Of a DNA stretch of 64,000 nucleotides, positions 2,211 to 38,281 are shown piece after piece. How positions within the stretch are numbered: position 1 is the first letter of the stretch; the number at the start of each line of letters is the position of its first letter. Where the stretch lies: assembly GCF_044324785.1 (NCBI RefSeq), contig NZ_CP172127.1. One strand, written 5' to 3'. The translations under genes were made by a program, and so were the position numbers. The notes under the pieces were generated by a model. That model worked only from the letters and a program-made list of their open reading frames with translations. It was not told the DNA's origin and ran no database searches. The stretch comes from Escherichia coli. Lineage in GTDB: Bacteria > Pseudomonadota > Gammaproteobacteria > Enterobacterales > Enterobacteriaceae.

Positions 2211-2267
2211 CTTAATGATCAATATCTATAGTGATATCACCAACCGTCAAAACGAACCGACAACTCC

Positions 2268-3200
2268 ATGAGGAACGGAATGATGAATAATAAAGTCAGC
2301 TTCACTAACAGCAATAATCCAACCATCTCTTTGTCTGCAGTGATCTATTTCCCTCCAAAATTTGATGAAACCCGTCAGTATCCGGCAATTGTGGTATCTC
2401 ACCCAGGTGGGGGCGTTAAAGAGCAAACGGCCGGAACCTATGCCGAAAAACTGGCGGAAAAGGGATTTGTCACTATTGCTTATGACGCATCTTATCAAGG
2501 TGAAAGCGGCGGCGAGCCGCGTCAGTTAGAAAACCCATACATTCGTACTGAAGACGTCAGTGCCGTGATTGATTACCTGACAACGCTTTCTTATGTCGAC
2601 AATACCCGAATTGGTGCGATGGGAATTTGTGCCGGTGCAGGATATACAGCCAATGCTGCAATTCAGGATCGCCGCATCAAGGCCATCGGTACTGTTAGTG
2701 CGGTCAATATTGGTTCGATGTTCCGTAATGGTTGGGAAAACAATGTGAAATCTATTGATGCCCTACCATACGTTGACGCGGGTTCAAACGCCCGAACCAG
2801 CGATATTAGCAGCGGAGAATACGCCACTATGCCACTGGCACCAATGAAGGAGTCCGATGCGCCGAACGAAGAACTGCGTCAGGCCTGGGAGTATTACCAC
2901 ACCCCTCGCGCGCAGTATCCAACAGCACCGGGTTACGCTACTTTGCGCAGCCTTAACCAGATTATTACCTATGATGCTTACCATATGGCGGAAGTGTACC
3001 TGACTCAGCCGATACAGATTGTGGCGGGCAGCCAGGCAGGGAGCAAATGGATGAGTGACGACCTGTACGATCGAGCATCAAGCCAGGATAAACGCTATCA
3101 CATTGTTGAAGGCGCAAACCATATGGATCTTTATGACGGCAAAGCCTATGTGGCTGAAGCAATTTCAGTATTAGCTCCGTTCTTTGAGGAAACTCTGTAA
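2268..3200 (+). CDS. ycjY: Alpha/beta-fold hydrolase with Cys in the nucleophile elbow (GICAGAG), YcjY-like
   Basis: 310 aa; G-x-C-x-G nucleophile elbow; first gene of the operon divergent from pgrR. Confidence 0.75.
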   Translation: MRNGMMNNKVSFTNSNNPTISLSAVIYFPPKFDETRQYPAIVVSHPGGGVKEQTAGTYAEKLAEKGFVTIAYDASYQGESGGEPRQLENPYIRTEDVSAVIDYLTTLSYVDNTRIGAMGICAGAGYTANAAIQDRRIKAIGTVSAVNIGSMFRNGWENNVKSIDALPYVDAGSNARTSDISSGEYATMPLAPMKESDAPNEELRQAWEYYHTPRAQYPTAPGYATLRSLNQIITYDAYHMAEVYLTQPIQIVAGSQAGSKWMSDDLYDRASSQDKRYHIVEGANHMDLYDGKAYVAEAISVLAPFFEETL

Positions 3201-4132
3201 TGAAACATATTCAAATCCGCAATAGTGATATGGCCTGGCATATTGCTGCCAATATTCAGTTTCCACCAAATTTTGATGAGTCAAAACAGTATCCGGCGAT
3301 TATCAGCGTCCATCCTTTTGGCAGTTGTAAGGAGCAGACGTCTGGCAATATCTATGGCAAGGCATTGGCTGAAAAAGGCTATGTCGTTCTCGCTTATGAC
3401 GCCAGTTTCCAGGGAGAATCTGGTGGGGAGCCTCGTTGGATAGAAGATCCGACACAGCGCGTTGAGGATATTAGCCGTGTTATCGATTATGCAGTAACTC
3501 TGCCATATGTTGATGCTGAACGCATTGGCGTGCTGGGTGTGTGTGGGGGGGGTGGCTATGCCATTAATGCCGCGCTGACAGAAAAACGAATTAAAGCTGT
3601 AGTGAGTATTACGGGTGTTAATATCGGGCGTCTTTTTCGAGAAGGTTTCAGCAATTACGATCCGATTGGCGCATTGAATGCAATGGCGTCGCAACGAACC
3701 AAAGAGGCTCGTGGTGGAGAATTACAGATCAACGAATTACTTCCCGCCAGCCTGGATGCAGCAAAAGCCCATGGACTGACCGAACGCGATGTTTATGAAG
3801 CAACTGACTACTATAAAACACCACGCGGGCAACAACCGGGAGGTGCGACAAAAATGTTGTTCTCACATGCACAGAAAACGCTGGCCTGGGATGCCTTCGC
3901 ATTTACTGAAGTGTTACTGACTCAGCCGGTGATGGTAGTAGTTGGTGAAAAAGTCGGTGCCTTCGGTGCTTATCGTGATGGACTGGAAGTCTATGGCCGG
4001 GCGATGGTTTCGCAGGATCGTCAGTTAGTTTCGTTACCCGATTTCTCACATTATGAACTGTATGACAAACCGGAAGCAGTTCAGGAGGCGCTGGAAAAAG
4101 TTATTCCTTTTTTCAACACCCATCTGGGATAA
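3200..4132 (+). CDS. Tandem paralog of ycjY: alpha/beta hydrolase with Cys nucleophile (GVCGGGG)
   Basis: 310 aa, roughly 45% identical to the upstream gene by eye; stop/start overlap TAATG at 3198-3202 suggests translational coupling. Likely the intact form of the locus I recall as a pseudogene (ymjD) in K-12. Confidence 0.7.
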   Translation: MKHIQIRNSDMAWHIAANIQFPPNFDESKQYPAIISVHPFGSCKEQTSGNIYGKALAEKGYVVLAYDASFQGESGGEPRWIEDPTQRVEDISRVIDYAVTLPYVDAERIGVLGVCGGGGYAINAALTEKRIKAVVSITGVNIGRLFREGFSNYDPIGALNAMASQRTKEARGGELQINELLPASLDAAKAHGLTERDVYEATDYYKTPRGQQPGGATKMLFSHAQKTLAWDAFAFTEVLLTQPVMVVVGEKVGAFGAYRDGLEVYGRAMVSQDRQLVSLPDFSHYELYDKPEAVQEALEKVIPFFNTHLG

Positions 4133-4137
4133 GTTTC

Positions 4138-4788
4138 ATGAGAAATATTATGAAAAAAGTACTCATTCTTGGTGCTGGCGGTCAGATAGCCCGCCATGTG
4201 ATTAATCAACTGGCAGATAAACAAACCATTAAACAAACTTTATTTGCTCGTCAGCCAGCAAAAATACACAAACCCTATCCAACTAATAGCCAGATTATTA
4301 TGGGGGATGTACTGAATCATGCAGCACTGAAGCAGGCCATGCAGGGACAGGATGTTGTGTATGCCAACCTTACGGGGGAAGATTTAGATATTCAGGCAAA
4401 TTCAGTGATCGCTGCGATGAAAGCCTGTGATGTTAAACGTCTGATCTTTGTTCTTTCCCTCGGTATTTATGATGAAGTTCCAGGAAAATTTGGCGAATGG
4501 AATAATGCAGTTATTGGTGAACCCCTAAAACCATTCCGCAGGGCTGCGGATGCAATTGAGGCTTCTGGACTGGAATATACAATTCTTCGCCCTGCCTGGC
4601 TGACTGATGAAGATATTATTGATTATGAGCTTACCTCACGCAATGAACCATTCAAAGGTACGATCGTATCACGTAAGAGTGTCGCCGCATTAATTACAGA
4701 TATCATCGATAAACCTGAGAAACACATTGGTGAGAATATAGGCATCAATCAACCCGGGACTGATGGCGATAAACCCTTCTTCATGTAA
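4138..4788 (+). CDS. NAD(P)-binding Rossmann protein (NmrA/atypical-SDR-like)
   Basis: 216 aa; N-terminal VLILGAGGQIARH dinucleotide-binding motif. Probably the intact counterpart of the K-12 pseudogene ymjC. Confidence 0.65.
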   Translation: MRNIMKKVLILGAGGQIARHVINQLADKQTIKQTLFARQPAKIHKPYPTNSQIIMGDVLNHAALKQAMQGQDVVYANLTGEDLDIQANSVIAAMKACDVKRLIFVLSLGIYDEVPGKFGEWNNAVIGEPLKPFRRAADAIEASGLEYTILRPAWLTDEDIIDYELTSRNEPFKGTIVSRKSVAALITDIIDKPEKHIGENIGINQPGTDGDKPFFM

Positions 4789-5078
4789 ATCAATTATATA
4801 GCTACCATCGTACTGTACTATGTGCAGTACGATTTATTAAACTTATTAAGGTGAACTGATCAATCAGATGCGATTAACATGTGTAGAACCAGTAAGAATA
4901 AAATACGCCATGTATATAACATTACGACAATTCTAATATCTGCACATCAATGAAAATGCAAACAACTTCTGGCAAAAAAGTGATACAAGATCGATGACAT
5001 AGCGTTGAAGAAAAGGATTTGATAATCCGCAAAATTTGCACAACACTGCCTGTAATACTTCCTGAACCAGAGACGATC

Positions 5079-5807
5079 ATGACCGTAACCCGCCCACGCG
5101 CCGAACGCGGCGCATTTCCGCCCGGAACAGAACATTACGGACGTTCATTATTGGGCGCGCCGTTAATCTGGTTTCCTGCCCCTGCAGCCAGCCGCGAAAG
5201 TGGTTTGATTCTGGCTGGCACTCACGGTGATGAAAACTCTTCGGTCGTCACGCTCTCCTGTGCTCTGCGGACGTTGACACCTTCTTTGCGCCGTCATCAT
5301 GTGGTGCTGTGTGTAAATCCTGACGGCTGCCAGTTGGGGTTACGGGCCAATGCTAATGGTGTGGATTTAAACAGAAACTTTCCGGCGGCGAACTGGAAGG
5401 AAGGTGAAACCGTTTATCGCTGGAACAGCGCCGCTGAAGAACGTGATGTCGTTTTACTGACAGGTGACAAACCTGGCTCCGAACCTGAAACCCAGGCGCT
5501 GTGCCAGCTTATACACCGCATTCAACCTGCCTGGGTGGTCTCATTCCACGATCCACTGGCCTGTATTGAAGATCCCAGACACAGCGAATTAGGCGAATGG
5601 CTAGCCCAGGCGTTTGAATTGCCTCTGGTAACCAGCGTCGGTTATGAAACACCTGGCTCTTTCGGTAGTTGGTGTGCGGATCTCAACCTGCATTGCATAA
5701 CCGCAGAGTTTCCGCCCATCTCCTCCGACGAAGCCAGCGAAAAATATCTCTTTGCGATGGCAAACTTGCTGCGCTGGCATCCTAAAGATGCAATTCGCCC
5801 GTTGTGA
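5079..5807 (+). CDS. mpaA: Murein peptide amidase A (gamma-D-Glu-Dap amidase)
   Basis: 242 aa from the internal ATG at 5079 (MTVTRPRAERG...); the ORF-track start at 5019 is an upstream in-frame extension. Confidence 0.85.
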   Translation: MTVTRPRAERGAFPPGTEHYGRSLLGAPLIWFPAPAASRESGLILAGTHGDENSSVVTLSCALRTLTPSLRRHHVVLCVNPDGCQLGLRANANGVDLNRNFPAANWKEGETVYRWNSAAEERDVVLLTGDKPGSEPETQALCQLIHRIQPAWVVSFHDPLACIEDPRHSELGEWLAQAFELPLVTSVGYETPGSFGSWCADLNLHCITAEFPPISSDEASEKYLFAMANLLRWHPKDAIRPL

Positions 5808-6747
5808 ACTGAAGCGCCGGTTCCACATCTACCGCCAGCCAGGTCGGTCCGTCAAGATCGGCGAAACTGACCTGCGGCACCAGCGGTAAAGCGGCGCTAA
5901 TGGCACGAGAGGTACACAACATGCAGCCCAGCATCAGACTAAAACCTTGTGCACGTGCTTCAGTCGCCAGCGCCAGCGCTTCCGTCAGGCCACCCGTTTT
6001 ATCGAGCTTAATGTTAACCATCTCATAGCGCCCTTTCAGCGCCTTCAGATTGCTACGAGTATGACAACTTTCATCTGCACAAATCGGTAACGGATGAATA
6101 AAATTCTCCAGTGCCGCATCGTCCTGCGCAGGGAGCGGTTGTTCAAGCATCGCAACGCCTAAATCCGCCAATAGCTGGCAACGCGCCGCCAACCCTTCTG
6201 CACGCCAGGATTCATTTGCGTCAACGATCAGCGTCGCATCGGGCACAGCTGTGCGAATTGCCACCATCCGCTCACTGATAAGATGGTTATCCAGCTTCAC
6301 TTTCAGTAATTTCGCGCCTGCCTGCCAGAATGTTGATGCACTATTGGCCATCTGATCAGGCGTACCGATGACTACCGTCTGTGCAGTGGTGACTATCTCG
6401 GGAAGCGTTACGCCGATCAAATCAGCCAGCGATTGCTGCTGTTTTCGCGCCGCCAGATCCCACAATGCACAATCCAGCGCATTACGTGCTGCGCCGGCAG
6501 GGAGAATTTTTTGCAACTCCTCCCGTGTCAGCCCTTTCTCTAATTGCGGCACGACGCTCATAATTTGCGCCATTACCGAGGCATCACTTTCTCCATAGCG
6601 CGGATAGGGCGTGCATTCACCGGTGCCTTTAATACCCTCTTCTTCCAGTTCAACCACCACCACGCGCGCTTCACTGCGACTTCCCCGAGCAATCACAAAC
6701 GGGGTATGTAAGGGCCAGGCTTCCTCAAATACCTTAACGGTTCTCAT
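5782..6747 (-). CDS. ycjG: L-Ala-D/L-Glu epimerase (enolase superfamily)
   Basis: 321 aa from MRTVKVFEEAWPL; 3' end overlaps the mpaA 3' end by 26 bp (convergent). Confidence 0.85.
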   Translation of the reverse strand: MRTVKVFEEAWPLHTPFVIARGSRSEARVVVVELEEEGIKGTGECTPYPRYGESDASVMAQIMSVVPQLEKGLTREELQKILPAGAARNALDCALWDLAARKQQQSLADLIGVTLPEIVTTAQTVVIGTPDQMANSASTFWQAGAKLLKVKLDNHLISERMVAIRTAVPDATLIVDANESWRAEGLAARCQLLADLGVAMLEQPLPAQDDAALENFIHPLPICADESCHTRSNLKALKGRYEMVNIKLDKTGGLTEALALATEARAQGFSLMLGCMLCTSRAISAALPLVPQVSFADLDGPTWLAVDVEPALQFTTGELHL

Positions 6748-6865
6748 CTTTACTCCTTGTTGTCGCAGTGGTCTGCGGATTAAGCGCAAATAGCGTTTGC
6801 TGTGTTATTGACAGTTAGCATAAACTAGGTGTGACGTTAACTATATGTAAACAGGAAAGATAATC

Positions 6866-7372
6866 ATGTCACAAACCGTTCATTTCCAGGGCAACCCGGT
6901 TACAGTCGCCAATTCCATCCCGCAGGCGGGTAGCAAAGCGCAGACTTTTACTCTCGTGGCAAAAGATCTGTCTGACGTCACCCTCGGTCAGTTTGCGGGT
7001 AAACGCAAAGTGCTGAACATTTTCCCGAGTATTGATACCGGTGTTTGCGCCGCATCAGTACGTAAGTTTAACCAACTGGCAACAGAGATCGACAACACCG
7101 TTGTGCTGTGTATCTCTGCCGATCTGCCGTTCGCCCAGTCTCGTTTCTGCGGCGCAGAAGGTCTGAACAACGTTATCACCCTCTCCACTTTCCGTAACGC
7201 TGAGTTCCTGCAAGCTTACGGTGTGGCAATTGCTGATGGCCCACTGAAAGGTCTGGCAGCGCGTGCCGTTGTGGTTATTGATGAAAATGACAATGTGATT
7301 TTCAGCCAGCTGGTGGATGAAATCACCACCGAGCCGGATTACGAAGCAGCTCTGGCTGTACTGAAAGCATAA
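6866..7372 (+). CDS. tpx: Thiol peroxidase
   Basis: 168 aa; matches remembered Tpx sequence. Confidence 0.9.
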
Positions 7373-7376
7373 GTTA

Positions 7377-7410
7377 ATATGCCTGATGGTGTTGCACCAT
7401 CAGGCATATT
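7377..7410. terminator. Bidirectional stem-loop between the convergent tpx and tyrR genes
   Basis: 15-bp inverted repeat ATATGCCTGATGGTG / CACCATCAGGCATAT. Confidence 0.7.
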
Positions 7411-7415
7411 CGCGC

Positions 7416-8957
7416 TTACTCTTCGTTCTTCTTCTGACTCAGACCGTATTCCCGCAACTTATTGGCAATCGCGGTATGCGAAACGCCCAGGCGTTTTGCC
7501 AGTTTGCGCGTGCTGGGATAATTGCGATAAAGCTGGGTTAATACCGAGCGTTCAAAACGGCTGGTGATTTCGTCCAGCGAACCTTCCATCGCATCTTCGC
7601 CCACGGCTACCGTTGCGGCGTCATAATCCGGTAACAAAATATCCTGTGGACGCAGCTCATAACCGTCCAGTTGTGTTAGTGCGCGATAAATAGCGTTCTT
7701 TAACTGCCGCACATTTCCCGGCCACGCATAACGCGTAAGTACAGTATTCAGGTCAGCGGCCAGTTTCGGACGCGGCACGCCCTGCTCGTCGGCAAAGCGG
7801 GCGACGAACAGCTCGGTTAACGGCATGATGTCCTGCGGACAGTCACGTAGCGGCGGCAGATTGAGCGTCAACACGTTCAGACGATAATAGAGATCTTCAC
7901 GGAACACGCCTTTTTGCACCAGTTCGACAAGATTCTTCTGCGTCGCGCAAATCACCCGCACATCGACATGCACCTCATGGTCTTCGCCAACCCGACGGAA
8001 AGTGCCATCATTAAGGAAACGCAGTAATTTCGCCTGCATCCGTGGTGACATCTCACCTATTTCATCCAGCAGTACCGAACCACCGTTCGCCTGCTCAAAG
8101 AACCCTTTCTTCCCTTCCGGAGCATGACCAAACAGTTCACTCTCGACCGCATCTTCCGGGATAGAAGCACAGTTCAGCGCCAGATAGGGTTTGCCCGCGC
8201 GTGGGCTTGCCTGATGACAGGCATACGCAAAGAGATCTTTTCCGGTGCCGGTATCACCCGTAATCAGCAGCGGCGCGCTTAGCATCGCCAGTTTTTGCGC
8301 CTGTTCGACAACATGCTTCATTTTCGGGCTGACAGCGACAATTTGACTAAAGGCGCTGACGTCCTGGGCGGCGACATTTTGCAACTGACGGCCCATACGA
8401 ATCGTTGATCGCAACATCACCACCGCACCGGTCAGGACGTGTTGATCATTTTCATCCTGAAGATAAACAGGCGTAATCTCCATCAGGAAATTCTGCCCAT
8501 TAATAACGACATGCTCGTTATGCGAATCTTGCGGTTCGCTTTCCAGCCAACGTAAAAAATTAAAGCCGTTAATCAATTGTGCGGCGGTATGGTTGCGCAG
8601 GCGATCCAATTTTTGCCCAAAAAGCTGACAGCTCGCCGGGTTCGCCATATCCACTTTGCTTTTCATATCGACAGAGAGCACAGGTTCAGGCAACGCCTCC
8701 AGTAACGCGCTCAACGCCAGATGCTCACGTTCGGAAGGCATCCACGGGACAGTACGGACATCGGTAACACCTGCAATACGGCGTATTTCGGCCATCAGAC
8801 TGCTGAAACTCTCAAACTCCAGTTCAGCAAAATTGAGGTAGATTCGCCCAATGGGGTCAATCTCAATACCGCGTAAATCAATGCCTCTTAGCACGAGTAG
8901 ATCGAGTAATTCGCGGGTCAGACCGAGTCGGTCTTCACAAAAGACTTCCAGACGCAT
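7416..8957 (-). CDS. tyrR: Transcriptional regulator TyrR (sigma-54-interaction-type AAA+ domain)
   Basis: 513 aa from MRLEVFCEDRLGL; GDTGTGKD Walker A and C-terminal helix-turn-helix. Confidence 0.9.
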   Translation of the reverse strand: MRLEVFCEDRLGLTRELLDLLVLRGIDLRGIEIDPIGRIYLNFAELEFESFSSLMAEIRRIAGVTDVRTVPWMPSEREHLALSALLEALPEPVLSVDMKSKVDMANPASCQLFGQKLDRLRNHTAAQLINGFNFLRWLESEPQDSHNEHVVINGQNFLMEITPVYLQDENDQHVLTGAVVMLRSTIRMGRQLQNVAAQDVSAFSQIVAVSPKMKHVVEQAQKLAMLSAPLLITGDTGTGKDLFAYACHQASPRAGKPYLALNCASIPEDAVESELFGHAPEGKKGFFEQANGGSVLLDEIGEMSPRMQAKLLRFLNDGTFRRVGEDHEVHVDVRVICATQKNLVELVQKGVFREDLYYRLNVLTLNLPPLRDCPQDIMPLTELFVARFADEQGVPRPKLAADLNTVLTRYAWPGNVRQLKNAIYRALTQLDGYELRPQDILLPDYDAATVAVGEDAMEGSLDEITSRFERSVLTQLYRNYPSTRKLAKRLGVSHTAIANKLREYGLSQKKNEE

Positions 8958-23816: not shown

Positions 23817-25202
23817 ATGGCTATTAATTCACCACTGAATATTGCTGCGCAACCCGGCAAAACCCGTCTGCGAAAATCACTGAAATTGTGGCAGGTGGTG
23901 ATGATGGGTCTGGCCTATCTCACGCCGATGACTGTGTTCGATACCTTTGGTATTGTCTCCGGCATTAGCGACGGTCACGTTCCGGCGTCCTATTTGCTGG
24001 CGCTGGCGGGCGTGCTGTTTACCGCTATCAGCTACGGCAAACTGGTTCGCCAGTTTCCGGAAGCCGGTTCGGCCTATACCTACGCGCAAAAGTCGATTAA
24101 CCCGCACGTCGGATTTATGGTCGGCTGGTCATCGCTGCTGGATTATCTCTTTTTGCCGATGATCAACGTCTTGTTGGCGAAAATCTATCTCTCCGCCCTC
24201 TTCCCGGAAGTGCCGCCGTGGGTGTGGGTGGTAACCTTCGTCGCCATTTTAACCGCCGCGAATCTGAAGAGCGTCAACCTGGTCGCAAACTTCAATACCC
24301 TGTTTGTACTGGTGCAAATCTCCATCATGGTGGTGTTTATCTTCCTGGTGGTTCAGGGACTGCATAAAGGAGAAGGCGTTGGCACCGTCTGGTCACTTCA
24401 GCCGTTTATCAGCGAGAACGCGCACCTGATCCCGATTATTACCGGGGCGACGATTGTCTGTTTCTCCTTCCTCGGTTTCGATGCGGTGACCACGCTTTCG
24501 GAAGAGACGCCGGACGCCGCACGCGTGATCCCTAAAGCCATCTTCCTGACGGCGGTATACGGCGGCGTTATCTTTATCGCTGCGTCGTTCTTTATGCAGC
24601 TGTTCTTTCCCGATATCAGCCGCTTTAAAGACCCGGACGCCGCACTGCCTGAAATTGCGCTGTACGTCGGCGGCAAGCTCTTCCAGTCGATTTTCCTCTG
24701 CACCACGTTTGTGAACACGTTAGCGTCTGGCCTGGCTTCACATGCCAGCGTGTCGCGTCTGCTGTATGTGATGGGGCGTGACAATGTGTTTCCGGAGCGC
24801 GTGTTTGGCTATGTGCACCCGAAATGGCGCACGCCAGCGCTGAACGTCATTATGGTCGGGATTGTTGCGCTGTCGGCGCTGTTCTTTGATTTAGTCACCG
24901 CGACAGCATTGATTAACTTCGGTGCTCTGGTGGCATTTACCTTCGTAAATCTGTCGGTGTTTAATCATTTCTGGCGGCGTAAAGGAATGAATAAAAGCTG
25001 GAAGGATCACTTCCACTATTTGCTGATGCCGCTGGTTGGCGCGCTGACGGTGGGTGTGCTGTGGGTTAACCTCGAGTCAACGTCACTGACACTCGGTTTG
25101 GTATGGGCTTCATTAGGCGGCGCATATTTGTGGTATCTGATCCGCCGCTATCGCAAAGTGCCGTTGTATGATGGTGACAGAACGCCGGTGAGCGAAACGT
25201 AA
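23817..25202 (+). CDS. puuP: Putrescine importer
   Basis: 461 aa from [12 protein letters not shown]; APC-family permease. Confidence 0.9.
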
Positions 25203-25335
25203 TAGTCGGATGCGCGGCGCATTATCCTGCCTGAGGGTAATGCACCGCGCCATTAACTATAAAAAGATGTATGACCCGGATCACGAGTGCTATCATCCGC
25301 CCTTATGCTTAGCGCATTAACCCCAGGGGCAAACA

Positions 25336-25581
25336 ATGAACCACGATATCCCGCTAAAATATTTTGATATTGCCGATGAGTACGCGACCGAATGCGCAGA
25401 GCCTGTCGCAGACGCTGAACGCACACCGCTGGCCCACTACTTCCAGTTACTGCTCACCCGTTTGATGAACAATGAAGAAATCAGCGAAGAAGCCCAACAT
25501 GAAATGGCTGCTGAAGCGGGGATTAATCCCGTACGCATTGATGAGATCGCAGAGTTTTTGAATCAATGGGGTAATGAGTAA
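25336..25581 (+). CDS. ymjA: Small protein YmjA
   Basis: 81-aa ORF at the conserved position between puuP and sapA. Confidence 0.7.
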
Positions 25582-25612
25582 TTATTTCATTGCAGACGCT
25601 CGGTCAGTATCG

Positions 25613-25654
25613 TTGCCCGGATAAAGCGTTCACGCCGCATCCGGCTAAAAATGA
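25613..25654 (-). repeat. REP element
   Basis: Reverse complement reads GCCGGATGCGGCGTGAACGCTTTATCCGGGCAA. Confidence 0.75.
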
Positions 25655-25893
25655 CACGCACTGCAGCGTGCCTTAATGGGTTTCTCACGATCGTACCGCT
25701 CTGCTCCTCGCTAAGTTGTTCTGTGAGTTATAGTTATAGAGAAATCACGGGTACGAATGTTGAACAGATGGCGACGTCACCTGTTCAACGACCAACCACA
25801 CGGCCCTCATTAAGACCCCTGAACACAAACGGTAATGGCAAATGTCATTAAATATTAGTAAGATAGCCTCTTTACATAAAATCCCTTAATATT

Positions 25894-27537
25894 ATGCGCC
25901 AGGTATTATCGTCTCTTTTGGTGATTGCTGGACTTGTGAGTGGTCAGGCAATCGCCGCGCCTGAATCCCCCCCGCATGCTGATATCCGCGACAGCGGTTT
26001 TGTCTATTGCGTTAGCGGGCAAGTCAACACCTTTAACCCATCCAAAGCGAGCAGTGGGTTAATTGTCGATACCCTTGCCGCCCAGTTTTATGATCGACTG
26101 CTGGATGTCGATCCCTATACCTATCGCCTGATGCCGGAACTTGCCGAAAGCTGGGAAGTTCTCGACAACGGCGCGACCTATCGCTTCCACCTGCGTCGCG
26201 ATGTTCCGTTTCAAAAAACCGACTGGTTTACTCCCACTCGTAAAATGAATGCCGACGATGTGGTGTTTACCTTCCAGCGAATTTTTGACCGCAACAACCC
26301 GTGGCATAACGTCAACGGCAGCAACTTCCCCTACTTCGACAGCCTGCAATTTGCCGATAACGTGAAAAGCGTCCGCAAACTGGATAATCATACGGTTGAG
26401 TTCCGACTCGCCCAGCCGGATGCTTCTTTTTTGTGGCACCTGGCGACCCATTATGCATCGGTCATGTCGGCAGAATATGCCGGGAAGTTAGAGAAAGAAG
26501 ATCGCCAGGAACAACTCGACCGTCAACCGGTTGGCACCGGTCCGTATCAGTTGTCGGAATACCGCGCCGGGCAATTTATTCGCTTACAACGTCATGATGA
26601 TTTCTGGCGTGGTAAGCCGTTGATGCCACAAGTGGTGGTGGATTTAGGCTCTGGCGGTACAGGACGATTGTCGAAACTCCTGACCGGGGAGTGCGACGTT
26701 CTGGCCTGGCCTGCTGCCAGTCAGCTATCCATTTTGCGTGACGACCCACGCTTGCGTTTAACGCTGCGTCCTGGGATGAACGTCGCCTATCTGGCATTTA
26801 ACACCGCCAAGCCGCCGCTAAATAATCCCGCTGTCCGCCATGCGCTGGCACTGGCGATCAATAACCAGCGTCTGATGCAATCCATCTATTATGGTACGGC
26901 TGAAACGGCAGCCTCTATTTTACCGCGCGCCTCGTGGGCCTATGACAACGAGGCTAAAATTACTGAATACAATCCGGCGAAATCGCGCGAACAGTTGAAG
27001 GCGTTGGGGCTGGAAAACTTAACGCTGAAACTGTGGGTGCCAACACGTTCGCAGGCGTGGAACCCCAGTCCACTGAAAACCGCCGAACTGATTCAGGCGG
27101 ATATGGCACAGGTTGGCGTAAAAGTGGTGATTGTGCCGGTAGAAGGTCGCTTTCAGGAGGCGCGGTTGATGGATATGAGCCATGATCTGACGTTATCCGG
27201 TTGGGCGACTGACAGTAACGACCCGGACAGTTTCTTCCGTCCGTTACTGAGCTGCGCAGCAATTCATTCGCAGACCAACCTCGCCCACTGGTGCGATCCG
27301 AAATTCGACAGCGTGTTGCGTAAGGCGCTCTCCTCGCAGCAGCTGGCGGCGCGTATTGAAGCCTATGACGAAGCGCAAAGTATTCTGGCGCAGGAATTAC
27401 CTATTCTGCCGCTGGCGTCGTCATTGCGTTTGCAGGCCTATCGGTACGATATCAAAGGTCTGGTACTTAGTCCGTTTGGTAACGCCTCCTTTGCTGGGGT
27501 GTATCGCGAGAAACAGGATGAGGTGAAAAAACCATGA
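25894..27537 (+). CDS. sapA: ABC transporter periplasmic binding protein SapA
   Basis: 547 aa with signal peptide. Confidence 0.9.
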
Positions 27538-29376: not shown

Positions 29377-30368
29377 TGCCATTACTCGATATTCGTAACC
29401 TGACCATTGAATTTAAAACCGGTGATGAGTGGGTTAAAGCCGTCGACCGCGTAAGTATGACCTTAACCGAAGGTGAAATCCGCGGTCTTGTTGGTGAATC
29501 CGGTTCCGGCAAGAGTTTGATTGCGAAAGCAATTTGTGGGGTGAATAAAGATAACTGGCGTGTTACAGCTGATCGTATGCGTTTTGATGATATCGATTTG
29601 CTGCGTCTCTCCGCACGCGAACGGCGCAAGCTGGTTGGTCACAACGTGTCGATGATTTTCCAGGAACCGCAGTCGTGTCTTGACCCTTCAGAACGTGTGG
29701 GTCGCCAGTTGATGCAAAACATCCCAGCCTGGACCTATAAAGGCCGTTGGTGGCAGCGTTTTGGCTGGCGCAAACGCCGTGCCATTGAACTGCTGCACCG
29801 CGTGGGGATTAAAGATCACAAAGATGCGATGCGCAGTTTTCCCTATGAGTTGACCGAAGGTGAATGTCAGAAAGTGATGATAGCCATTGCACTGGCGAAT
29901 CAACCGCGTCTGCTGATTGCTGACGAACCGACAAACTCAATGGAGCCAACAACCCAGGCGCAAATCTTTCGCCTGCTGACGCGTCTCAACCAAAACAGCA
30001 ATACCACTATTTTGCTTATCAGCCATGACTTACAAATGCTTAGCCAATGGGCGGATAAAATTAACGTGCTTTACTGCGGTCAAACGGTGGAAACCGCGCC
30101 AAGTAAGGAGTTGGTGACAATGCCACATCATCCTTATACCCAGGCGCTGATCCGCGCGATACCAGACTTCGGCAGCGCGATGCCGCATAAAAGTCGCCTC
30201 AATACGCTGCCCGGCGCTATCCCACTGCTGGAACAGTTACCGATTGGGTGTCGTCTGGGGCCGCGTTGCCCGTATGCACAACGAGAATGCATTGTGACGC
30301 CACGTTTGACGGGGGCGAAAAATCATCTCTATGCCTGTCATTTCCCGCTGAACATGGAGAAAGAGTGA
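29376..30368 (+). CDS. sapD: ABC transporter ATPase SapD
   Basis: 330 aa; Walker A GESGSGKS. Confidence 0.9.
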
Positions 30369-36295: not shown

Positions 36296-38281
36296 ATGAA
36301 AACCGTTAGGGAGTCCACAACGTTGTACAACTTTCTCGGATCGCACAATCCATACTGGCGGTTAACGGAAAGCAGCGATGTTTTGCGCTTTTCTACCACC
36401 GAAACCACAGAACCTGAACGTACGTTGCAGTTATCTGCCGAACAGGCTGCTCGCATCAGGGAAATGACGGTCATCACCTCCAGCCTGATGATGAGTCTGA
36501 CCGTCGATGAGAGCGATCTTTCTGTGCATCTGGTAGGACGAAAAATCAATAAACGGGAATGGGCTGGCAACGCGTCGGCATGGCATGACACACCGGCGGT
36601 TGCTCGTGATTTATCACACGGGCTTTCCTTTGCTGAGCAGGTAGTTTCTGAAGCACATTCCGCAATAGTGATTCTCGACAGTCGGGGGAATATCCAGCGC
36701 TTCAATCGGTTATGTGAAGATTACACAGGGTTGAAAGAACACGACGTCATTGGGCAAAGCGTGTTTAAACTGTTTATGAGCCGTCGTGAAGCTGCGGCAT
36801 CCAGGCGCAATAACCGTGTATTTTTTCGAAGCGGCAATGCATATGAAGTCGAACTGTGGATACCAACACGTAAAGGCCAGCGGCTGTTTCTGTTTCGCAA
36901 TAAATTTGTCCACAGCGGCAGTGGCAAAAACGAGATTTTTTTAATCTGTTCCGGCACCGACATTACCGAAGAGCGCCGCGCTCAGGAGCGACTGCGCATT
37001 CTGGCAAATACCGACAGTATCACCGGACTGCCGAATCGTAACGCAATGCAGGAGTTAATCGATCACGCTATTAATCAGGCAGATAACAATAAAGTTGGGG
37101 TTGTGTATCTTGATTTGGATAATTTTAAAAAGGTCAACGACGCCTATGGGCATTTGTTTGGTGACCAGCTATTACGCGACGTGTCATTGGCCATTTTAAG
37201 CTGTCTGGAGCATGACCAGGTTTTGGCGCGTCCAGGTGGCGATGAGTTTCTGGTACTGGCATCCAATACCTCACAAAGCGCGCTGGAAGCAATGGCATCA
37301 CGTATTTTGACCCGCTTACGGCTCCCCTTCCGCATTGGTTTAATTGAAGTTTATACCAGCTGTTCAGTGGGTATTTCACTCTCTCCCGAACATGGTTCGG
37401 ACAGCGCGGCTATTATTCGTCACGCCGACACAGCAATGTACACAGCGAAGGAAGGCGGACGAGGACAATTTTGCGTTTTTACTCCAGAAATGAATCAGCG
37501 GGTATTTGAATATCTCTGGCTGGATACCAACTTGCGTAAAGCACTGGAAAACGATCAGTTGGTTATTCACTATCAACCGAAAATCACCTGGCGTGGCGAG
37601 GTGCGCAGTCTGGAAGCACTAGTACGTTGGCAGTCACCTGAACGTGGGTTGATTCCACCGTTGGACTTCATTTCCTACGCCGAAGAGTCAGGGCTAATTG
37701 TGCCTTTAGGCCGTTGGGTGATTCTCGATGTCGTACGCCAGGTGGCAAAGTGGCGGGATAAAGGTATTAACCTGCGAGTGGCGGTAAACATTTCTGCACG
37801 TCAGCTCGCCGATCAAACCATTTTCACCGCCCTGAAACAGGTTCTCCAGGAACTCAATTTTGAATACTGCCCTATTGATGTTGAACTGACGGAGAGCTGC
37901 CTGATTGAGAATGATGAACTGGCACTTTCTGTTATTCAACAATTTAGCCAACTAGGTGCGCAAGTGCATCTGGACGATTTTGGTACCGGCTACTCTTCAC
38001 TTTCGCAACTGGCGCGCTTTCCGATCGATGCCATCAAACTTGACCAGGTTTTTGTTCGAGATATTCACAAACAACCTGTCTCGCAGTCACTGGTCCGGGC
38101 GATCGTCGCTGTGGCCCAGGCATTGAATCTTCAGGTGATCGCCGAAGGTGTAGAGAGTGCAAAGGAAGATGCTTTTTTAACCAAGAACGGGATCAATGAG
38201 CGGCAAGGATTTTTGTTTGCCAAACCGATGCCCGCCGTCGCCTTCGAACGCTGGTATAAACGCTATCTGAAGCGCGCATAA
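36296..38281 (+). CDS. pdeR: c-di-GMP phosphodiesterase PdeR (PAS-GGDEF-EAL)
   Basis: 661 aa; GGDEF-like and EAL domains. Confidence 0.9.
   Translation: MKTVRESTTLYNFLGSHNPYWRLTESSDVLRFSTTETTEPERTLQLSAEQAARIREMTVITSSLMMSLTVDESDLSVHLVGRKINKREWAGNASAWHDTPAVARDLSHGLSFAEQVVSEAHSAIVILDSRGNIQRFNRLCEDYTGLKEHDVIGQSVFKLFMSRREAAASRRNNRVFFRSGNAYEVELWIPTRKGQRLFLFRNKFVHSGSGKNEIFLICSGTDITEERRAQERLRILANTDSITGLPNRNAMQELIDHAINQADNNKVGVVYLDLDNFKKVNDAYGHLFGDQLLRDVSLAILSCLEHDQVLARPGGDEFLVLASNTSQSALEAMASRILTRLRLPFRIGLIEVYTSCSVGISLSPEHGSDSAAIIRHADTAMYTAKEGGRGQFCVFTPEMNQRVFEYLWLDTNLRKALENDQLVIHYQPKITWRGEVRSLEALVRWQSPERGLIPPLDFISYAEESGLIVPLGRWVILDVVRQVAKWRDKGINLRVAVNISARQLADQTIFTALKQVLQELNFEYCPIDVELTESCLIENDELALSVIQQFSQLGAQVHLDDFGTGYSSLSQLARFPIDAIKLDQVFVRDIHKQPVSQSLVRAIVAVAQALNLQVIAEGVESAKEDAFLTKNGINERQGFLFAKPMPAVAFERWYKRYLKRA

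Follow-up and report, generated by a model that had tools for sequence, protein, structure and literature searches.

Two neighbouring genes of Escherichia coli, mpaA and ycjG, converge with no DNA between them, and each ends inside the coding sequence of the other. Does this junction couple the expression of the two genes, or is it simply the place where two stop codons have come to rest? The reading that we prefer, and hold with considerable confidence, is that it is an ordinary, spacer-less, tail-to-tail coding overlap, a product of stop-codon drift that serves no function of its own, with read-through limited by Rho and the resulting antisense RNA tolerated.

Geometry of the junction and identity of the proteins

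In the window (the whole 64,000-nucleotide stretch of E. coli chromosomal DNA analysed here), mpaA occupies 5079–5807 on the plus strand and encodes murein tripeptide amidase A (242 aa from the RefSeq start ATG at 5079; ORF list, RefSeq N3, PDB 5hxd). On the minus strand, ycjG occupies 5782–6747 and encodes the 321-aa L-Ala-D/L-Glu epimerase (ORF list, RefSeq, full-length PDB 1jpd match). The preliminary description had placed a 26-bp convergent overlap at 5782–5807, and the sequence and ORF list match it exactly. The mpaA frame ends ...CGC CCG TTG TGA, with its TGA stop at 5805–5807 on the plus strand, where most relatives have TAA; the ycjG frame ends ...CAT CTT TAG on the minus strand, with its TAG stop read from 5784 to 5782. 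Over the shared stretch, the last MpaA residues KDAIRPL and the stop lie opposite YcjG residues FTTGELHL and their stop.

The same 26-bp overlap appears in the RefSeq annotation of N3 (mpaA 5079–5807 and ycjG 5782–6747 in window coordinates), which is 99.9% identical to the window over 1.9 kb, and in that of K-12 MG1655 (ycjG 1388930–1389895, plus strand; mpaA 1389870–1390598, minus strand). The overlap is thus already known, being present in the reference annotation, and the locus was found in 5413 of 5426 complete E. coli genomes.

Both proteins have been crystallised. MpaA matches PDB 5hxd, which is E. coli MpaA, with E = 1.4e-166, and YcjG matches PDB 1jpd, the E. coli L-Ala-D/L-Glu epimerase, over its full length including the C-terminal GELHL (E = 8e-209). 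Solved structures for both rule out a spurious ORF. The 5hxd chain runs to residue 237, leaving the last MpaA residues outside the crystallised construct; MpaA from Vibrio (4axv) aligns to residue 235 only, and MpaA orthologues are mostly 235–239 aa long versus 242 aa here.

That the overlap is an annotation artefact, with one stop or frame misassigned, has virtually no chance of being right. The sole point in its favour is an older, longer mpaA annotation that starts at TTG 5019 instead of the present ATG 5079. The preliminary description had named a misassigned mpaA start or stop as grounds for giving up the overlap. The choice of start is uncertain, but this doubt touches the 5′ end and leaves the 3′ end unaffected, and the stop holds. 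Stops are fixed by the frames, and the frames in turn by the crystal structures and by high-identity orthologues up to the C-terminus. The agreement between the N3 and K-12 MG1655 annotations and the near-universal presence of the locus in complete genomes likewise argue against an artefact.

The two genes are therefore genuine ORFs on opposite strands with each stop inside the partner coding sequence, and mpaA/ycjG is a full member of the class of convergent overlapping coding-sequence pairs. It shares with pairs formed by 3′-end extension (PMC4161906, PMC2716372) the opposite strands, the stops inside the partner, the short overlap and an origin by stop displacement, which in this case is visible in relatives. 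There are no essential differences, although the mpaA/ycjG overlap is somewhat longer than the commonest, 4-bp TTAA type, and the pair is unusually well documented in having crystal structures for both proteins.

Such overlaps are common. In E. coli, Huvet and Stumpf found 663 adjacent gene pairs that overlap, 75 of them convergent (PMC4161906). By the N3 annotation, three of the eight convergent pairs in the first 50 kb of the window overlap: mpaA/ycjG by 26 bp, sapF/SMI1-KNR4 by 4 bp (29725–29728), and pdeR/ymiD by 19 bp (36815–36833). Plus-strand frames that enter ycjG in antisense meet their first stops after 4, 26 and 108 nt, so that an intrusion of 8 codons is unremarkable. The overlap is no more than chance would lead one to expect, and is an ordinary feature.

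Distribution, drift and origin of the overlap

A scan for MpaA with one genome per species gave 80 loci, from Escherichia to Klebsiella and Raoultella. Junctions were compared in a set of 83 sequences (82 loci plus the window), and look-ups of genomic context extended the total to 86 enterobacterial loci. In all loci with a scored orientation (85 of 86) the genes converge; locus L015 gave a poor ycjG alignment, yet its 3′ junction is of the normal 26-bp type. No spacer separates the genes in 81 of the 86 loci. This prevalence of the spacer-less state across two families could mean that the overlap is selected, which would speak against our preferred view.

Overlaps of 4, 10, 19, 21, 26, 33 or 47 bp were seen. 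The 10-bp overlap occurs in 45 loci, including those of Enterobacter, Klebsiella, Kluyvera, Leclercia, Lelliottia and Kosakonia, and the 26-bp overlap in 27 loci, from Escherichia, Citrobacter, and Salmonella arizonae and diarizonae; three loci have 4 bp, and 33 bp and 47 bp each occur once. The mppA/mpaA/ycjG/tpx/tyrR synteny is kept in Pantoea (26-bp overlap), Cronobacter (19 bp) and one Erwinia (21 bp). Which gene carries the extended tail also varies. In the Citrobacter youngae group the roles are reversed, with the mpaA stop 21 nt earlier and ycjG 7 codons longer, and in Cronobacter, Erwinia and Pantoea the extended tail likewise belongs to ycjG.

In five species the genes are separated by a spacer of 88–331 bp. 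The spacers of loci L057 and L059 hold a canonical bidirectional terminator (A-tract, GC stem, T-tract) and a small ORF of 39 aa, and those of L054 and L062 hold REP-like sequences. The presence of a terminator or REP-like sequence in spacer-bearing species indicates that loss of the overlap is tolerated.

As judged from these junctions, the spacer-less convergent arrangement is ancestral to Enterobacteriaceae and Erwiniaceae, and the absence of a spacer is old and stable whereas overlap length is not. Persistence of the spacer-less state would need no selection, because point mutations merely shift the stops and regaining a spacer needs an insertion.

The two C-terminal tails are under unequal constraint. 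FTTGxLHL at the YcjG C-terminus is conserved almost everywhere, whereas MpaA is conserved as far as ...LLRW(H/Q)P and hypervariable beyond it, with tails such as KDAIRPL, KDAIRPS (in K-12), KDAIRRS, KDGVARS and KDEVVRS. We counted 17 distinct MpaA tails versus 7 YcjG tails, the YcjG variation lying mostly at one codon. Across 23 distinct junctions, substitution types in the 20 sense nucleotides of the overlap were mostly nonsynonymous for mpaA (15, with 2 synonymous), whereas ycjG had 7 nonsynonymous and 10 synonymous. Codon positions 1, 2 and 3 of mpaA face positions 1, 3 and 2 of ycjG, respectively; with mpaA position 2 opposite ycjG position 3, a wobble change that is silent in ycjG alters MpaA. 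The window and K-12 differ in this way at 5803, where MpaA goes from Leu to Ser and YcjG keeps its Thr. The pair thus illustrates overlap drift in which the less constrained MpaA tail takes up the substitutions, and the conserved Phe-Thr codons of the partner (TRA on the opposite strand) limit the length of the overlap.

The 26-bp state can be traced to a small change. In the alignment, the interval from CTGGCAnCC to the ycjG stop is 1 nt shorter in Escherichia, Citrobacter and Salmonella than in Enterobacter, Klebsiella and Lelliottia, and this 1-nt indel sets the 26-bp class apart from those with 4 bp and 10 bp. Lelliottia-type junctions read CCTTAAAG, with a 4-bp TTAA overlap. From the alignment we infer that one nucleotide immediately upstream of the ycjG stop was lost in the lineage of Escherichia, Citrobacter and Salmonella, turning, for instance, CCTTAAAG into CCTAAAG. 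Loss of one T would abolish the mpaA TAA and turn the ycjG TAA into TAG, and the mpaA frame would then extend by 7 codons to an in-frame T(G/A)A at 5805–5807. A stop there is forced, because the reverse complement of the ycjG Phe-Thr codons TTY-ACN is NGT-RAA, and the equivalent stop triplet is present in nearly all relatives. Orthologue overlap lengths, the indel and the MpaA lengths all point to stop displacement by 3′ extension.

Transcription across the junction

The preliminary description held that there is no room for a terminator between the genes, and our searches bear this out, in that no intrinsic terminator-like site lies at the junction. A consensus scan of 4700–7500 for intrinsic terminators returned 4 sites against 3.1 expected, with none within several hundred bases of the junction; the terminator-like sites at 6781–6799 (plus strand) and 4765–4743 (minus strand) are at chance level. 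A promoter-like site that straddles the overlap (5808–5779, minus strand, 9 of 12 matches) was also put down to chance, with 3 such sites found and 2.8 expected. An Rfam scan of 4500–7600 at E ≤ 1 gave zero matches.

RNA folding of 5770–5900 gave z = −2.78 for the plus strand and z = −0.43 for the minus strand. Folding and alignment pick out a 5-bp palindromic hairpin, GCATC-CTAAA-GATGC, at 5777–5791, centred on the ycjG stop. This hairpin is the only structural feature at the junction. It was rejected as a terminator on account of having no U-tract and being unconserved, since the alignment shows that species with 10-bp overlaps do not conserve it, and its presence is probably a coincidence of the coding sequence. 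Bidirectional intrinsic terminators between convergent genes occupy the same genomic position, and the relatives with loci L057 and L059 carry such an element; the E. coli junction differs in having no spacer, GC-rich stem or U-tract, and is not a bidirectional intrinsic terminator.

Because each full-length mRNA includes its own stop codon, the two share at least 26 nt of complementarity. The further proposal that the transcripts overlap in antisense at their 3′ ends is supported by a Rho termination region, by antisense reads and by a listing in ExcludonFinder; such overlap of mpaA and ycjG transcripts is already published.

The Rho termination region was mapped by Adams et al. 2021 (PMC7815308) at K-12 position 1390286 (plus strand) and classed as antisense to mpaA. 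Coverage upstream/downstream was 47/14 without BCM and 58/68 with BCM, giving a Rho score of 3.94 (p = 7.2e-5). This position falls within mpaA, some 390 nt downstream of the ycjG stop and near window position 5391, and is coarse, the score being computed from 800-nt windows (PMC7815308). By composition, the read-through ycjG RNA has a sole C-rich, G-poor stretch (5261–5481, minus strand; C/G 1.2–1.9; +300 to +520 past the ycjG stop), and this stretch contains position ~5391. On the plus strand, the RNA beyond the mpaA stop, antisense to ycjG (5808–6767), has 301 C versus 219 G over 960 nt, and may be a Rho substrate or a read-through path towards tpx. The locus therefore resembles known Rho-dependent termination of antisense read-through (PMC7815308) in its BCM-sensitive drop and its C-rich untranslated downstream RNA, but differs in that the drop is documented for the ycjG strand and not for the mpaA strand. 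The data of Adams et al. show no Term-seq 3′ end at the junction in three growth conditions, none of their entries naming ycjG, and no Rho region for the mpaA strand (PMC7815308); we found no published 3′ end for the mpaA strand.

Antisense and double-stranded RNA are both detectable over the two genes. In the wild-type total RNA of Huang et al. 2020 (PMC7373196), sense/antisense RPM were 51.2/10.0 for ycjG and 73.9/17.6 for mpaA, so that antisense amounts to about 20–24% of sense. RNA captured by p19 as dsRNA came to 29–54 RPM for ycjG and 55–112 RPM for mpaA (PMC7373196), and its capture over mpaA shows that duplex RNA does form. The mpaA signal of about 107 RPM is near the top 13% of genes, an observation that goes against the preferred view. 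Two 21–22-nt duplexes of RNase III type captured by p19 map inside mpaA at about 5207–5283 (U00096.2 1388418-39 and 1388472-94; Table S3 of Huang et al. 2020, PMC7373196), some 500–575 nt past the ycjG stop, at a low abundance of 1–4 RPM; at least 1 RPM of dsRNA was obtained from 87% of genes (PMC7373196). In the rnc-14 and rnc-38 mutants the sense RPM of both ycjG and mpaA falls and does not rise, a comparison that is weak in being of RPM only (PMC7373196).

ExcludonFinder (NAR 2025, PMC12288877) lists ycjG-mpaA among 165 convergent excludons detected in at least 50% of 58 RNA-seq samples, gives tpx-ycjG as a divergent excludon, and names mpaA-ycjG-tpx as one of only three E. coli 'noncontiguous operons', a call based on coverage. 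With transcripts about 9-fold above those of mpaA, tpx must be served by a promoter of its own. The pair belongs to the core excludome, and excludon pairs have higher synteny than other neighbours (PMC12288877), which is a further observation against the preferred view.

Coupled expression or tolerated overlap

MpaA, YcjG and PepD carry out sequential steps on the murein tripeptide (PMC2954226), and the PgrR regulon lists both ycjG and ycjY-ymjDC-mpaA, PgrR being a repressor (PMC5934670). The pair thus acts in one pathway under a common repressor, which makes the coupling of expression through the overlap suggested in the preliminary description unlikely biologically. Under the drift reading that we prefer, RNA polymerase that meets no intrinsic terminator would run beyond each stop codon, the untranslated C-rich RNA would become a Rho substrate, and transcription would stop a few hundred nucleotides into the partner. 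For the ycjG strand, Rho termination inside the partner is borne out by the published BCM data; for the mpaA strand it is presumed to take the same course. Two weakly expressed mRNAs would in this way share complementary 3′ regions, and their interaction in antisense is probably a by-product that is tolerated, and not a means of regulation. The shared pathway and regulator, the lack of a rise in rnc mutants, the drifting length and the five species with spacers all argue that the overlap is incidental.

A different mechanism has been described for hundreds of E. coli convergent genes, in which converging polymerases collide and end each other's transcription in a Rho-independent manner, a stem-loop in the nascent RNA positioning the collision. 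The 5-bp palindrome at mpaA/ycjG sits exactly on the ycjG stop, where such a stem-loop might act. However, a hairpin of only 5 bp that is unconserved in species with 10-bp overlaps is a poor candidate, and the paired Rho-independent 3′ ends that go with a stem-loop in this class are not seen, none of three conditions having yielded a Term-seq 3′ end at the junction. Transcripts of the ycjG strand end some 390 nt further on and do so in a BCM-sensitive way, and at expression levels of 51 and 74 RPM the simultaneous presence of convergent polymerases would be rare. We regard collision-driven bidirectional termination here as very improbable.

More has to be weighed in the case of a functional convergent excludon. 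This explanation holds that the overlap is selected and that transcription of one gene lowers the other, through polymerase interference or RNase III cleavage, or else that an mpaA-tpx 'noncontiguous operon' silences ycjG. A 26-nt duplex is long enough to be a substrate for RNase III. The pair shows the antisense transcript overlap of neighbours that is typical of convergent excludons (PMC12288877), and the listing of the pair and of the mpaA-ycjG-tpx operon, the retention of a spacer-less junction in most loci, the antisense reads and p19 dsRNA over both genes, and the RNase III-type duplexes in mpaA are all consistent with it. On the other hand, the listing comes from coverage only, and its authors were unable to validate convergent excludons by p19 data (PMC12288877). 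The mpaA duplexes stand at 1–4 RPM, next to the 1 RPM or more of dsRNA that 87% of genes yield, and the fall of both sense signals in two rnc mutants, an RPM-only measure, speaks weakly against this explanation. Classic excludons involve overlapping UTRs of genes with opposing functions and opposite expression, whereas mpaA/ycjG is a coding overlap within one pathway and one regulon, and mutual exclusion of consecutive enzymes under one regulator would be physiologically counter-productive. How long the overlap is, and which gene is extended, vary freely, and five species have a spacer with a canonical terminator or REP-like sequence instead. A functional excludon is accordingly unlikely.

A related and decidedly doubtful possibility is that selection keeps the junction spacer-less across Enterobacteriaceae and Erwiniaceae so that reciprocal antisense read-through, Rho-limited on one strand and reaching tpx on the other, balances the output of the two consecutive murein-tripeptide-degrading enzymes. 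If so, mpaA-ycjG-tpx would be a true noncontiguous operon, with overlap of coding sequences, and not of UTRs, as the coupling element.

With the overlap annotated and the transcript overlap catalogued, the discovery value of the locus is small, and its interest is as a clean example of how overlaps arise. There is also a practical side. A 3′ deletion or tag in either gene would be expected to alter the C-terminus or stop codon of the other; since the 3′ ends are shared, designs for ycjG or mpaA mutants must respect 5782–5807.

Antisense RNA and transcript ends around mpaA and ycjG

The duplex at U00096.2 1386794-1386815 (88,301 reads) was the second most abundant in E. coli among RNase III/p19-captured duplexes (Huang et al. 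2020, PMC7373196). It maps to window ~6886-6907, at the 5' end of tpx, the gene beyond ycjG, and dsRNA from tpx amounted to 2238-5161 RPM in the same study. It is therefore the divergent 5' overlap of tpx and ycjG, rather than the convergent 3' overlap of mpaA and ycjG, that forms the strong antisense interaction here. At the mpaA/ycjG junction, a minus-strand promoter-like site (TTCACA-18-TAGGAT, 9/12 matches; window 5808..5779) straddles the overlap, is directed into mpaA antisense, and could contribute to mpaA antisense reads; the region held three such sites, compared with 2.8 expected by chance.

Near the mpaA start, Adams et al. 2021 (PMC7815308; supplementary files 1 and 3) list a Term-seq 3' end at K-12 1390559 (-), with the class 'internal, 39 nt' relative to mpaA. 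The plus-strand hairpin GCGCCGAACGCGGCGC, followed by UUU (window 5098-5118; 20-39 nt inside the ORF), lies at the same place. This 3' end could reflect premature termination or a processed end.

The junction in relatives

In four relatives' loci, mpaA and ycjG are separated by ~300-bp spacers (L057, 3729-4014; L059, 3726-4039; L060, 3726-4030; L062, 3726-4058) that carry a conserved, membrane-like small ORF of ~39 aa on the ycjG strand (MVDWEEEGVSTQEVLTKRMIDTVGLV...). The L057 and L059 spacers also have a canonical bidirectional terminator directly past the mpaA stop, and REP-like sequences occur inside the spacers of L062 and of a further locus, L054. In Citrobacter koseri NCTC10786 (L015), the 26-bp junction is intact despite poor alignment of ycjG (1981-2946), whose identity over the full length is only 52.6%, with many gaps; this suggests frameshifts, either because the gene is a pseudogene or because the assembly contains errors.

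Neighboring genes and other convergent overlaps

Upstream of mpaA, the window has an intact second alpha/beta hydrolase gene (3200-4132) and an intact SDR oxidoreductase gene (4150-4788). By blastn of region 3200-4952, K-12 is without ~3258-4149 and ~4289-4952, so that the K-12 'genes' ymjD and ymjC are what these deletions left of the two genes.

The window holds two more convergent coding overlaps, sapF/SMI1-KNR4 (29725-29728, 4 bp) and pdeR/ymiD (36815-36833, 19 bp); pdeR-ymiD-yciZ is likewise among the three E. coli 'noncontiguous operons' of ExcludonFinder (PMC12288877). Separately, in strain N3, which is nearly identical, RefSeq annotates the counterpart of sapA (window 24447-26089) as a frameshifted pseudogene.
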